In this document: positions 12,057-38,494 of the stretch, in pieces
Layout of the letters: each line of letters starts with the position of its first letter
Numbering within the stretch: the first letter of the stretch is position 1
Assembly: GCF_004020365.1 (NCBI RefSeq)
Contig: NZ_SAQR01000009.1
DNA: 64,000 nucleotides
Reading direction: 5' to 3' (one strand)
Origin: Mesorhizobium sp.
GTDB lineage: Bacteria > Pseudomonadota > Alphaproteobacteria > Rhizobiales > Rhizobiaceae
The notes under the pieces: generated by a model
What the model was told of the DNA's origin: nothing
What the model saw: only the letters and a program-made list of their open reading frames with translations
The model's database searches: none
Position numbers and translations under genes: made by a program

Positions 12057-13520
12057 TTAGATTCCACCCATGCAGAGGTACTTCATTTCGAGGTAGTCTT
12101 CGAGCCCGTGGCGGGAACCCTCCCGCCCGATGCCGGACTGCTTCATGCCGCCAAAGGGCGCCGCTTCCGAAGACATACGCCCCGTATTGATGCCAATCAT
12201 GCCATATTCCAATGCCTCGGCCACGCGCCAGACACGCCTCAGGTTCGAGGCATGGAAATAGGCGGCGAGCCCGTAAATCGTGTCGTTTGCCTCACAGACA
12301 ACCTGATCCGCATCGTGGAAGCGGATGATCGGCGCCAACGGCCCGAAAGTCTCCTCTTGCGCAACCGCCATGATGCTGGAGATCTCGGTGAAGGCTGTGG
12401 GTTGAAAACGTTCGGCCCCGCATCGAATTATCCCACCCTTAGCAACGGCATCTGCGATGTGGGACTCGATCTTGGCCAAAGCATGCATGTCGATGAGTGG
12501 TCAGACGTCCACTCCCGGAGCGAAGCCGTCGCCAACCGATAAGTGCCGGACTTTCTCCACGAACTTCTCGACGAACTCATCGTGAACGCTCGATTGGACG
12601 TAAAGCCGGTTCGATGAAACGCAAGTCTGGCCGGCATTGCGGAACTTCGCCTGGATCGCCCCGTCAACGGCAGCGTCAATATCCGCGTCGTCGAAGACGA
12701 TGAAGGGCGCATTGCCGCCGAGCTCGAGGCTGACCTTCTTGATCTAGTCCGAGCACTGGCGCATGAGCAGTCGGCCAACCTCGGTGGAGCCTGTAAAGCT
12801 GATGTTTCGGACCTTGGCATTGGAGCAGAGTTCGCGGCCCCACGCGATCACCTTCGGACGCATAGACCAGGTTGACAACGCCGTCAGGAAAGCCGGCTTG
12901 CTGCGCGAGGGCAAACATTGCACCTGCCACGAGCGGCGTCTGTTCAGCAGGTTTGAGCACGATCGCGCAGCCCGCCGCCAGGGCCGGCGAGATCTTGCGC
13001 GCCACCATCGACGCTGGGAAATTCCATGGCGTAATCGTGCCGACGACACCGATCTGCTGATTGATCACCATCATCCGACGGTCTGTAGACGGTGCGGAGA
13101 TCGTCTCGCCATAGATGCGATTGGCTTCTTCGGCGTACCATTGCAGATACGCGGCCGCATGCGAAACCTCCGACTTGGCTTCGGCAAACGGCTTGCCCAT
13201 TTCCGCAGTCAGAATCGCGGCGAGATCGCCTGCATGGCGATGATCAGCTGATGCCATCGCCAAAGAAGGTCGCTGCGCTCTCGGGCGGTCAGCGCCGCCC
13301 ATCCAGGCTGCGCGACATAGGCCTCGTCTACCGCAGCCCGTGTCTCCTCCACGCCCATGTCGGACGTCCTGCCAGCACTTCGCCGCTCGACGGGTTGAGG
13401 ACCACAAATGACCGCTCGCGAACTGACGTGCCAAGTGCCGGCAGGCGATGGACGGCGCCAAACAGGTCCGGGGATTTCAGTGGCGGATCATCGGCAGGCA
13501 CAGGGGCAAACCGGGTTCCT
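12057..13520 (-). pseudogene. gabD: NAD(P)-dependent succinate-semialdehyde dehydrogenase pseudogene
   Basis: ITPWNFP, FTGSTEVG, EETFGP and PFGGMKQSG motifs split across frames, with an in-frame stop near 12746. Paralog of 33635-35092. Confidence 0.9.
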
Positions 13521-32829: not shown

Positions 32830-33320
32830 AAAGCGACAGTCCGCGCTGTGCGTCGGTGGATGAACGTTCGCTCGCAGCTGTACCCGTCACCAACAGTTCG
32901 CCCGCCGACAGGACTGCATGGCGCCTTGCAAGGTGCGCTCTGGTCTAGCTTGTCGATGCGGAAATGAGATCGGCGAGGGTGCCAAGGCGGTGGTTCATTA
33001 GGGCCGGCCTCGAACTGGACCCACATCAGTGGTCGGAAAGCGGCGTGCACCGCAATGTCGCCATAGCAGCCAAGATCCTTTGAGTCCGGACATGCAGACC
33101 TGTTGGACCGGCGATCGTTGAAGGTGCAACTGTATGGAGGGATTTAAAGCTTAACACTGTCCCCTGGACCGACAGCTCGGTCAGACATCGCACCCACCGC
33201 TTGATTATGGAAATGGTGTGCCTGGAGTACAGCGGGTAGCGCTTGCTGCGCACTGTCCTAAGAATAGCAATCATGACCCGTCTGGGGGTCTGCAACACGA
33301 CGATCCAACCGCTTGGGCAT

Positions 33321-33413
33321 TGTCGCATATCCCACAATGTAGAGTGCGCAACAGGGCAAAAGCTGATCCATCGGCGGTTTATCAATGCTTTTTGGCTTGG
33401 CACGGTACATGCA
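33321..33413 (+). promoter_or_regulatory. NifA/sigma54 promoter with two perfect UAS
   Basis: TGT-N10-ACA at 33321-33336 and 33338-33353; TGGCACGGTACATGCA at 33398-33413. Confidence 0.85.
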
Positions 33414-33634
33414 ACGCAATCGGCAAAAGGCGCACGAACTGAGTGGCCCCATCGGCCCTAGGAGCGCTGACTTATGCCCTCCCAAGGCATGTCCGGCCCG
33501 GCAGCGAGCTCAGTCTCCTGCCGGGCATCCGTGTTTCAGGTCAACGGCGTTTGGAACTTCAAATTAGGTGGCGGCATTGACCGCAGGCCGCCCCCGGTGG
33601 CCGGCCGGTGGGCGGAGAGACAGTGCAGCAGGTT

Positions 33635-35092
33635 TCAAATCCCGCCCATGCAAAGATATTTCATTTCCAGATAGTCCTCGAGGCCATGGCGGGAACCCTC
33701 CCGCCCGATGCCGGATTGTTTAATACCGCCAAACGGTGCCGCCTCCGAGGACATGCGTCCCGTGTTGATGCCAACCATGCCATATTCCAGAGCCTCTGCC
33801 ACACGCCAGACCCGCTTCATGTTGGAGGCATAGAAGTATGCGGCGAGGCCGTAAATCGTGTCATTGGCCTCGCGCACGACCTGATCCGCATCGTTGAAGC
33901 GAATGATCGGCGCCAGCGGCCCGAATGTCTCCTCTTGCGCGACTGCCATGACGCTGGAAATCTCGGTGAGGACCGTGGGTTTGAAAAACGTGCCATTCTT
34001 GCCGATACGTTGGCCCCCGCATCGTATTGTGCCGCCTTTCGCAATGGCATCTGCGATGTGAGACTCTATCTTGGCCAGAGCATGCCTGTCGATGAGCGGT
34101 CCGATGTCCACTCCGGCATCGAATCCGTCGCCAACCGACAAGTGCCGGACTTTCTCCACGAATTTCTTGACGAACTCATCGTGAACGCTCGATTGGACGT
34201 AAATACGGTTCGCCGAAACGCAGGTCTGGCCGGCATTGCGAAACTTCGCCTGGATCGCACCGTCAACAGCAGCGTCGATGTCGGCATCATCGAAGATGAT
34301 GAAAGGTGCGTTGCCGCCGAGCTCAAGGCTAACCTTCTTGATCTGGTCAGAGCACTGACGCATCAGCAGCCGCCCGACCTCGGTCGAACCGGTGAAGCTG
34401 ATCTTGCGGATCTTGGAATTGGTGCAGAGTTCACGGCCGACGCGATCACCTTCGGACGCATAGATCAGGTTGACCACGCCATCGGGAAAGCCGGCCTGAT
34501 GGGCAAGGGCGAACATTGCGCCAGCCACGAGCGGCGTCTGTTCAGCGGGCTTGAGCACGATCGTGCAGCCCGCAGCCAAGGCCGGCGAGATTTTGCGCGC
34601 CACCATGGAGGCCGGGAAATTCCATGGCGTGATCGTGCCAACAACGCCGATGGGCTGCTTGATCACTAGCATTCGGCGGTCTGTCGAGGGTGCCGAGATC
34701 GTCTCGCCATAGACGCGATTGGCCTCCTCGGCATACCATTGCAGATACGCCGCCGCATGCGATACCTCTGACATGGCTTCGGCAAGCGGCTTGCCCATTT
34801 CCGCAGTCAGAATCGCGGCGAGATCGCCTGCATGGTCGATGATCAGCTGATGCCATCGCCAAAGAACGTCGCTACGCTCTCGGGCAGTCAACGCGGCCCA
34901 TCCCGACTGCGCAACATAGGCCTTGTCTACCGCAGCACGTGTCTCCTCCACGCCCATATCAGGAAGCTCTGCCAAAACTTCGCCGGTCGACGGATTGACG
35001 ACCTCGAACGTCTTATTGCCAACCGGTCTGCCAAGTGCCGGCAGGCGGTCCATGGCTCCAAACAGGTGCGGGGATTTCAGACGGCGGATCAT
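33635..35092 (-). CDS. gabD: NAD(P)-dependent succinate-semialdehyde dehydrogenase
   Basis: Complete ALDH motif set ([30 protein letters not shown]). Start uncertain; ATG 35092 gives 485 aa. Confidence 0.92.
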   Translation of the reverse strand: MIRRLKSPHLFGAMDRLPALGRPVGNKTFEVVNPSTGEVLAELPDMGVEETRAAVDKAYVAQSGWAALTARERSDVLWRWHQLIIDHAGDLAAILTAEMGKPLAEAMSEVSHAAAYLQWYAEEANRVYGETISAPSTDRRMLVIKQPIGVVGTITPWNFPASMVARKISPALAAGCTIVLKPAEQTPLVAGAMFALAHQAGFPDGVVNLIYASEGDRVGRELCTNSKIRKISFTGSTEVGRLLMRQCSDQIKKVSLELGGNAPFIIFDDADIDAAVDGAIQAKFRNAGQTCVSANRIYVQSSVHDEFVKKFVEKVRHLSVGDGFDAGVDIGPLIDRHALAKIESHIADAIAKGGTIRCGGQRIGKNGTFFKPTVLTEISSVMAVAQEETFGPLAPIIRFNDADQVVREANDTIYGLAAYFYASNMKRVWRVAEALEYGMVGINTGRMSSEAAPFGGIKQSGIGREGSRHGLEDYLEMKYLCMGGI

Positions 35093-35515
35093 CGGCAGGC
35101 ACAGGGGCAATACCGGATTCCTCCTCAACGCAGCGAACATCCAGGTCGACAGGCCGTCGGTGTGTATTCTGCACCAGCGGGTTCGTCCTAGGGCCTCGGC
35201 AAAGCAGCTGGTAGACCAAACATACGACAACAGTTCCGTTAGTTTGAGTGCCCGCGGTTCATCAGTTGATGGATTGAGCAGCCGGATGTTTGCTTCGTCC
35301 ACCCGCTGCCTGCTGGTGGCGTGCGAGTGTATTCTGCAAAAGGCGGCATACATGCTGAGGAGCGCCGTTTCGGCGAGAGGCCCCTGGACCGCCAATGCCG
35401 CGCAAGGCCCGCGAAACGACTCCGCGGGTCTGCATGATCTGCTTGGCCCACCGGCCTCCATATTCGCTCTTCCCACGAGAAGCCCCAAGGAAGAAGGAAG
35501 GCGAGATGAGTTTCT

Positions 35516-38402: not shown

Positions 38403-38494
38403 AGCATGCGCCGTGCCAAGTAAGAAAGCCCCGATTTGCAAGGTTTGATCCAACCTTGATACTTGCGATATCCGACATTGTCGGGCATCCGACA
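38403..38494 (-). promoter_or_regulatory. NifA/sigma54 promoter of the M16-gabD block
   Basis: Minus strand TGGCACGGCGCATGCT at 38403-38418; a second GG-N10-GC at 38437-38453; perfect TGTCGGGCATCCGACA at 38479-38494. Confidence 0.82.

Follow-up and report, generated by a model that had tools for sequence, protein, structure and literature searches.

A gene-less NifA/sigma-54 promoter convergent to gabD in a Mesorhizobium symbiosis region, and a conserved two-hairpin module in its leader

In a 64,000-nt stretch of DNA from Mesorhizobium sp. (contig NZ_SAQR01000009.1; here called the window, whose numbering is used for all coordinates unless a contig is named), a promoter of the NifA/sigma-54 type was identified that points towards the 3' end of a convergent gabD gene and, as an earlier sequence-only reading of the window had correctly noted, faces no known gene. 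The window belongs to a symbiosis region of Mesorhizobium; its nearest matches are symbiosis plasmids of Mesorhizobium and genomes from that genus. We propose, with a probability of about one half, that this orphan promoter drives a functional NifA-dependent non-coding RNA, possibly with antisense read-through into gabD. NifA at 33321-33353 would activate RpoN-polymerase at 33398-33413 in bacteroids, and transcription from near 33424 would yield a non-coding RNA whose functional part is a module of two hairpins, either as a short species of ~105-115 nt that ends after hairpin 2 or as a longer read-through RNA. A small or antisense RNA was one of three options raised earlier, and it is the best supported of them, the conserved part being the 67-nt two-hairpin module in the leader; antisense action on gabD does not stand as the conserved role, because in other lineages the promoter lies 0.8-10 kb from gabD.

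All promoter motifs described in the sequence-only reading were found where it had placed them. Two tandem upstream activator sites (UAS) for NifA with exact TGT-N10-ACA spacing, TGTCGCATATCCCACA at 33321-33336 and TGTAGAGTGCGCAACA at 33338-33353, precede a sigma-54 -24/-12 core, TGGCACGGTACATGCA, at 33398-33413, which was identified by pattern match and has canonical GG/GC spacing; all three are on the plus strand. The centres of UAS 1 and UAS 2 lie ~95 and ~78 nt upstream of the start that is predicted, from the -12 element, near 33424. Single TGT-N10-ACA sites occur in the window at chance level (10 observed, 7.75 expected) and sigma-54 cores three times against 0.2 expected; because such cores are so rare, paired UAS at 45-77 nt upstream of one are far beyond chance. 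The core differs only in its last base from the promoter sequence TTGGCACGGTACATGCT published for acdS (msi273) (PMC3538637, Table 1). At least one perfect UAS is kept at the same distance from the core in 27 of 35 distinct homologous copies, UAS 2 being imperfect (TGT-N10-ACG) in most paralogues and gone from the close ortholog in genome G114. NifA is encoded in the genome (a match above the curated cut-off on contig C108), as are two rpoN genes (contigs C15 and C108). On its sequence, the orphan element is a genuine NifA/sigma-54 promoter of working type, from which transcription is predicted.

The module has the same two-hairpin design in independent minimum free energy (MFE) folds of the window copy, of a copy heading an operon and of a copy of a further kind (type B, described below). 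Hairpin 1 (33474-33490, plus strand, from MFE folds) consists of the arms AUGCC and GGCAU around the loop CUCCCAA, and presents an anti-Shine-Dalgarno-like CCUCCC in that loop; over the family it is a stem of 4-6 bp with CCUCCCAA in the loop. Hairpin 2 (33496-33526, plus strand, from folds and alignments) is a GC-rich stem of 12 bp with one bulge, formed by GCCCGGCAG-C-GAG, the loop CUCAGU and CUC-CUGCCGGGC. The segment 33466-33530 folds at -30.9 kcal/mol (z = -3.7), and none of 200 shuffled sequences was as stable. Over 27 distinct sequences, 96% of the cells in the alignment are paired, compared with 28-43% when the partners are slid. Hairpin 1, as drawn by hand, contains one compensatory change, C-G to U-A, in three of these 27 sequences. 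The outer 9 bp of hairpin 2 are invariant; its upper stem is remodelled yet still paired at loci L046 (GUGAC/GUCAC) and L051 (GGAGC/GCUCC), and in acdS-type copies its bulge is turned into a G-U pair. The CUCCCAA motif is found in the hairpin 1 loop of the window copy and in two other contexts, and is predicted to be an unpaired anti-Shine-Dalgarno motif. The exposed CCUCCC loop would then pair with the ribosome-binding sites of target mRNAs, in the manner of the alpha-proteobacterial anti-Shine-Dalgarno small RNAs; we judge such trans action, which is suggested by the motif and forms part of the non-coding RNA reading, to be possible, albeit somewhat unlikely. A search of this genome for the loop complement (CTTGGGAGG) gave 39 sites where ~88 were expected from composition, hence no enrichment of targets.

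The core and the module are selectively conserved, while the remainder of the element is near neutral. This could be seen, in short segments and related sequences, when the gabD-adjacent copies were compared between lineages with the 4-fold degenerate sites of gabD as yardstick. At those sites the mismatch is 0.33-0.41; it is 0.00 in every pair for the core (16 nt) and about 0.09 for the module (33460-33526, 67 nt), as against 0.21-0.50 for the UAS region (75 nt), 0.30-0.36 for the first 46 nt of the leader and 0.32-0.57 for the 60 nt after the module. A similar picture is obtained within the group of close orthologs to which the window belongs, all of which have in common the deletion by which gabD came to adjoin the leader: in the module, 2 of 67 columns are variable, compared with 9.5% of gabD third codon positions and 16% of the upstream non-coding DNA. 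Eight genomes (G019, G089, G053, G045, G016, G050, G083 and G114) have a single match to the element; where the context was examined this match is the gabD-adjacent copy, so that gene conversion from an operon copy cannot currently keep it intact. In a tree built on 175 nt, the operon and acdS copies group together with good support, among several gabD-adjacent lineages that branch deeply; being short and midpoint-rooted, this tree leaves the direction of change unsettled.

Promoter and leader form a unit, here called the cassette, which on sequence searches was seen only in Mesorhizobium. With 33380-33590 as query, matches, part of which are partial, were obtained in 54 of 118 Mesorhizobium genomes (one genome per species), and 53 of these 54 are nifH-positive; a covariance model of the module, run on 151 genomes that include the other sampled genera of the order, matched only the two copies of this genome. 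The cassette consists of tandem NifA sites ~60-77 nt upstream of the core TGGCACGGTACATGC, followed by a leader with the two-hairpin module at ~40-100 nt into the predicted transcript, and is present in 1-3 copies per genome. Aligned over 130-200 nt with the copies heading acdS and p190-S8, the window stretch is 73-83% identical to them; the core is the same and the module nearly so. Its leader (33424-33589, plus strand) is truncated, as the alignments show homology to the family ending near 33589, that is at about +165, where the leaders of the operon copies continue to a full length of ~470 nt.

Two kinds of genomic home could be distinguished. At the first, the cassette lies ~470 nt upstream of p190, encoding a secreted protein of 186 residues that belongs to no Pfam family, which is followed by an S8 peptidase gene (p190-S8-acdS or p190-S8 at loci L029, L033, L045, L048 and L049, acdS being included in G101); the MAFF303099 plasmid pMLa and a related plasmid have p190-S8 without acdS behind the cassette. 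At the second home, the cassette is convergent to the 3' end of an M16-M16-gabD operon, the spacing being 36-45 nt in the 16 sampled genomes of the window group and 0.8-10 kb in at least nine further genomes as well as on plasmids from M. loti 582 and M. huakuii 583. The interval varies by lineage, holding a HAD hydrolase gene and a nifS remnant (both on the minus strand), hipBA remnants or an integrase gene, and contains no conserved cargo. At one locus (L075, G026:C178:35139-43139), two plus-strand open reading frames (ORFs) were identified by eye, one encoding a 314-residue outer membrane protein (OMP)-like protein at +990 to +1934 after the cassette and one a dCTP-deaminase-like protein at +2506 to +3072. 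An initial statement that all genes between cassette and gabD are on the minus strand was withdrawn on account of this locus, whose ORFs may, judged from the sequence, represent a third kind of cargo for the cassette promoter.

The present genome contains a second cassette copy, 73 kb away and adjoining an insertion sequence (IS) element, with imperfect UAS sites and one stem mismatch. No homologue of p190 or S8 was found anywhere in this genome, and its intact acdS gene has no cassette match by BLAST and no sigma-54 core within 650 nt upstream; both cassettes are orphans without a cargo operon. As the genome's own acdS lacks the cassette, the idea that the window copy is a duplicate of that gene's promoter was dropped, and homology to the acdS promoter of other strains is preferred. 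A third match to the pattern was obtained in this genome at C97:392631; it is located within a VirB2/TrbC-like coding sequence and is due to chance. The earlier suggestion of a leftover promoter of a deleted gene holds in so far as the DNA behind the promoter corresponds to the 5' portion of the non-coding leader that belongs to the p190-S8 peptidase-acdS operon; no broken coding gene is present, and the copy beside gabD is a stand-alone paralogue that is old and has a conserved core and module.

The cassette family includes a promoter that has been studied experimentally, the NifA2/RpoN2-dependent promoter of acdS. In M. loti R7A and M. japonicum MAFF303099, acdS corresponds to msi273 and mlr5932, respectively, and the 17-mer listed by Sullivan et al. 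2013 for the msi273 promoter is TTGGCACGGTACATGCT; an acdS promoter fusion was strongly expressed in R7A nodules, and expression was abolished by a nifA2 mutation (PMC3538637). The acdS-linked cassette copies carry exactly this 17-mer, and are homologous to the window DNA in having UAS, then TTGGCACGGTACATGC, then a leader with the two-hairpin module, at 77-78% identity over ~145 nt. They differ from the window in what comes next: there a fragment of S8 and acdS follow, here the leader is cut at ~+165 and nothing coding is found. At loci L040-L042 and L050 (genomes G011, G024, G054 and G005), the leader is fused to the last 49 codons (residues 271-319) of the S8 gene, which occupy +30 to +180 from the end of the element, with acdS at about +560. 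Because this 3' fragment of S8 remains between leader and acdS, the NifA2-dependent promoter published for acdS seems to have arisen from the p190-S8-acdS operon by deletion. Such a derivation seems, by analogy, to parallel that of two promoters on ICEMlSymR7A, 'nifH frag' and 'nifQ frag'. Irrespective of any RNA function, the 'acdS promoter' used in work on 1-aminocyclopropane-1-carboxylate (ACC) deaminase and nodulation is thus an apparent remnant of a larger NifA-driven operon.

Several observations weigh against a functional non-coding RNA. The module is near-invariant and its covariation is thin, with a single pair changed on both sides; RNAalifold on 30 copies recovered hairpin 2 with no covariation bonus, and an inverted repeat that does not vary might just as well be a site on the DNA to which a protein binds. 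When the window was scanned against Rfam with wide and narrow settings, chance-level matches alone were obtained (a scan of nine related loci gave no match). Hairpin 2 has no U-tract terminator, being followed by CAUCCGUGUUUCAGG without a U tail, and since transcription of the operons must read through it, a discrete small RNA is not assured. As the copies had been detected through their similarity, conserved ones are favoured and decayed ones could have been missed. As a check, the 10 kb downstream of gabD was searched with an nhmmer profile in genomes outside the window group whose gabD is of the symbiosis type (90-92% protein identity). Decayed modules were not detected in these regions; no cassette at all was present in 7-8 of the ~21 genomes, implying that the element can be lost outright, and the sole hits in the cassette-less regions belong to a different NifA promoter (TTGGCACGACACATGC) with a prolyl-oligopeptidase-like gene behind it. 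Lesions do occur elsewhere: six close relatives have an uncompensated G-to-A change in hairpin 2, L031 lacks one G, and the second copy of this genome has lesions in UAS and stem. Finally, with an OMP-like plus-strand gene ~1 kb downstream in G026, the cassette may be a mere portable mRNA promoter plus leader.

The last point leads to the main rival explanation, which we judge to be possible, albeit somewhat unlikely: a functionless relic, in which a portable promoter and leader have lost their cargo by deletion, the promoter is now either silent or active to no effect, and the module persists on account of a cis role in the cargo mRNAs of other strains or because too little time has passed. 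The shortened leader of the window copy, the cassette-less gabD regions, the plus-strand genes of G026 and the small lesions just described all fit this explanation, as do the fragment-bearing promoter duplications and the one gene-less promoter described for ICEMlSymR7A (PMC3538637). What is difficult to reconcile with a relic is the age and spread of the orphan arrangement, which occupies several deep lineages, together with a core and module that are at least 4-fold more conserved than neutral sites while the flanks have drifted. Even within the window group, where every member shares the deletion, the module varies less than neutral sites; single-copy lineages still keep the cassette intact, and the nhmmer check turned up no copy in which the module had decayed. 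An improbable alternative is a dedicated device for cis-antisense or transcriptional interference, which would trim gabD expression in bacteroids or end the convergent operon by collision. The convergent geometry is kept in the 16 genomes of the window group as well as, at 0.8-10 kb, in at least nine others, both promoters are of the NifA type and would be co-induced, and no terminator separates them. Distance and intervening genes, however, vary by lineage, so that gabD cannot be the conserved target; it is the module that is conserved and not the junction, of which the gabD-side spacer is the most variable part, and elsewhere the same cassette is an ordinary sense promoter.

The module could also act as DNA, the inverted repeat GCCCGGCAG...CTGCCGGGC together with the box CCTCCCAAGG beside it being a protein-binding or recombination site such as an operator, a roadblock or a junction for cargo exchange. 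This explanation, to which we attach a low probability, draws on the outer arms, which are invariant rather than covarying, on the highly variable DNA downstream, which differs between islands and has several breakpoints after hairpin 2, on a tyrosine recombinase gene 0.5 kb away in one lineage, and on module-only and hairpin-only fragments beside IS remnants. It is disfavoured by the changes in the upper stem of hairpin 2 and in one pair of hairpin 1 that preserve pairing, by the replacement of the bulge with a G-U pair in acdS-type copies, by breakpoints that fall at no single fixed nucleotide, and by a copy number of just 1-3 per genome. The least probable explanation, and in our view a very unlikely one, is that a bacteroid-specific protein of 66 residues is translated from the ATG at 33474 behind the AGGAG at 33460, as had been suggested earlier. 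The ORF (33474-33674, plus strand, from the ORF list and alignments of homologues), the ribosome-binding-site-like AGGAG at 33460-33464 and the overlap of ~40 nt with the 3' end of gabD were all confirmed; among eight distinct close orthologs (94-99% DNA identity) the ORF is intact in seven, and a 9-nt indel among them preserves the frame. In G114, however, a frameshift reduces it to 35 residues, and all five substitutions within the ORF among close orthologs are non-synonymous. Deeper homologous copies have ACG in place of the ATG and a 2-nt indel just after it that shifts the frame, they carry GAGAG, GAAAG or GAAAA instead of AGGAG, and they are open in differing frames. The C-terminal third of the ORF is merely the antisense of the gabD 3' end, the product has no Pfam match, and in the predicted fold the AGGAG is paired with the CCUCC loop region. 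The earlier proposal to compare conservation of promoter and ORF gives the same answer, with an identical core across the gabD-adjacent lineages and neither start nor frame of the ORF conserved. The ORF was rejected as a conserved gene on the basis of start, ribosome-binding site, frame and substitution pattern, and should stay unannotated as a gene whether or not the proposal of a non-coding RNA is correct.

Gene-less and reiterated nif promoters are known from other rhizobia, among them on symbiosis plasmids of Rhizobium and Sinorhizobium. Repeated copies of the nifH promoter occur in R. leguminosarum bv. trifolii, and a promoter-leader is shared between P1 and P2 in S. meliloti. On ICEMlSymR7A, the 'Nr msi281' promoter faces no gene, and 'nifH frag' and 'nifQ frag' are promoter duplications (PMC3538637). 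The cassette resembles these cases in that a NifA promoter with its transcript start has been copied around the symbiosis region, at times without a gene; it differs in its core, which is TGGCACGGTACATGC rather than the nifH type TGGCACGAGTTTTGAA, and in that the piece in the window is wholly non-coding and marked by an RNA-like module instead of a gene fragment. A likeness in design exists to alpha-r14 (NfeR1) and alpha-r15 (AbcR), trans-acting small RNAs with anti-Shine-Dalgarno loops (PMC7143759), namely an unpaired CU-rich CCUCC(C) in a hairpin loop followed by a stable GC hairpin. In contrast to alpha-r14, the module contains the anti-Shine-Dalgarno motif once and not three times, lacks a U-tail terminator and stands behind a sigma-54/NifA rather than a sigma-70 promoter, its RNA being predicted from the sequence; the window did not match the Rfam family of ar14 (RF02344) at E-values up to 10. 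Sigma-54-dependent small RNAs have been predicted in S. meliloti and B. japonicum from transcription-start maps (PMC7143759). These share with the window element an RpoN-type promoter before a non-coding transcript in a rhizobial symbiont; their starts were mapped, whereas the present element was recognised from its sequence and conservation and doubles as an operon leader. In the small-RNA catalogue of M. huakuii 7653R, the notable RNA MH_s15 is chromosomal (PMC5596092).

Within the literature surveyed, no characterised NifA-dependent small RNA was found for any rhizobium. The promoter itself is, from its sequence, an addition to the known family of NifA promoters and a homologue of the acdS promoter; the RNA-like module, the stand-alone copy by the gabD operon and the origin of the acdS promoter from p190-S8-acdS appear to be undescribed in that literature. 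Taken to its full extent, the proposal would be that of an undescribed, Mesorhizobium-specific RNA regulator with a CCUCCC loop, switched by NifA, which stands alone by gabD and forms the 5' end of the p190-S8-acdS mRNA, silences bacteroid mRNAs and has its module also on the type-B promoter; we offer this sequence-derived version as a tentative and rather doubtful one. If it were true, the NifA regulon would acquire a post-transcriptional branch by which target mRNAs are silenced in the bacteroid, and since little is known of riboregulation in Mesorhizobium, a functional module would add a regulatory layer to the bacteroid programme. The cassette also flags NifA-controlled transcription units that are invisible to gene callers.

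The same two-hairpin module was observed at five type-B loci: L054 (G082:C4:29896-31943), L055 (G102:C116:141100-143150, about 930-1060), L056 (G027:C22), L065 (G097:C176) and L066 (G005:C13). The loop there is CCUCCUCCC, which is the alpha-r14 anti-Shine-Dalgarno motif, and the upstream region is a distinct conserved box of ~150 nt (ATCACCGCTTTTATGCACATCTCG...CGCCGATCTCCTGCG) without a sigma-54 core. That the module is here combined with another upstream region is consistent with an RNA domain that is put to repeated use. One type-B locus gave a weak full-length match to the Rfam ar14 family (13.3 bits, compared with a gathering score of 58.8 for RF02344), which is a resemblance in design and not membership. 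At L065, the module lies just upstream of a FAD-oxidoreductase-like ORF (N-terminus, recognised by eye) with a duplicated 5' end.

The convergent operon comprises two M16 peptidase genes (M16 domains were found in the first of these with Pfam) and, as its last gene, gabD (33635-35110, minus strand, with the stop codon at 33635-33637), encoding an NAD-dependent succinate-semialdehyde dehydrogenase (Pfam Aldedh, E = 3e-171) that is 91% identical to the annotated enzyme on the M. loti 582 plasmid. The earlier statement that gabD is itself downstream of a NifA promoter was borne out by motif searches, which located a UAS (38479-38494) and a sigma-54 core (38403-38418) on the minus strand at the head of the operon. 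Between the end of the leader and the gabD stop lies a GC-rich, lineage-specific spacer of 45 nt (33590-33634) with a hairpin of its own; it is the most variable segment among the close orthologs (11 of 45 columns, or 24%, plus a 9-10 nt indel in the loop). No U-tract terminator is present in the spacer on either strand, nor any terminator-like site in 33000-34000, and this geometry permits antisense overlap of gabD: with a gap of only 45 nt and no terminator, part of the transcripts from the orphan promoter would extend in antisense orientation into the 3' end of gabD, where they would collide with the operon. A second symbiosis-type gabD, at 12060-13480 on the minus strand (G000:C277:53789-55209), is a pseudogene with several broken frames (tblastn pieces of 67-88% identity) and has no adjoining cassette copy. 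A broken second acdS, which is in pieces with TAG and TGA stops, is located outside the window at G000:C108:6479-7486 on the minus strand, 10 kb from the intact acdS (C108:16932-17936).

As seen in the window and at L023-L027 and L045, the points at which cassette homology ends are recurrent, which may reflect a recombination-prone site or chance. One such point directly follows hairpin 2, another comes behind GTTCAGAA(C), and a third is situated within GGCGGCGCAATGTCCGG, where the breakpoint of the window at 33589 falls. A 38-nt cassette fragment, consisting of hairpin 2 and CATCCGTGTTT and 97% identical to the window copy, was found at L053 (G002:C1:3966936-3968973), 14.5 kb upstream of a full copy and joined to an IS-like remnant. 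The fragment is absent from this genome and from G016, and is present at the same place in G008, G009, G031, G041, G069, G082, G104 and G105. The different NifA promoter mentioned above was identified at L087, L088, L090, L091 and L093 (genomes G052, G100, G095, G062 and G096), 0.7-9.7 kb downstream of gabD and in the orientation of gabD, with cassette-like tandem UAS (TGTCGG...CGACAATGTCGGACATGAGACA) and the core TTGGCACGACACATGC; it heads a gene of ~700 codons whose product resembles prolyl oligopeptidase in its N-terminal sequence. As its UAS-to-core part is homologous to that of the cassette and its leader is not, the promoter part of the NifA promoters in these islands is of common descent.

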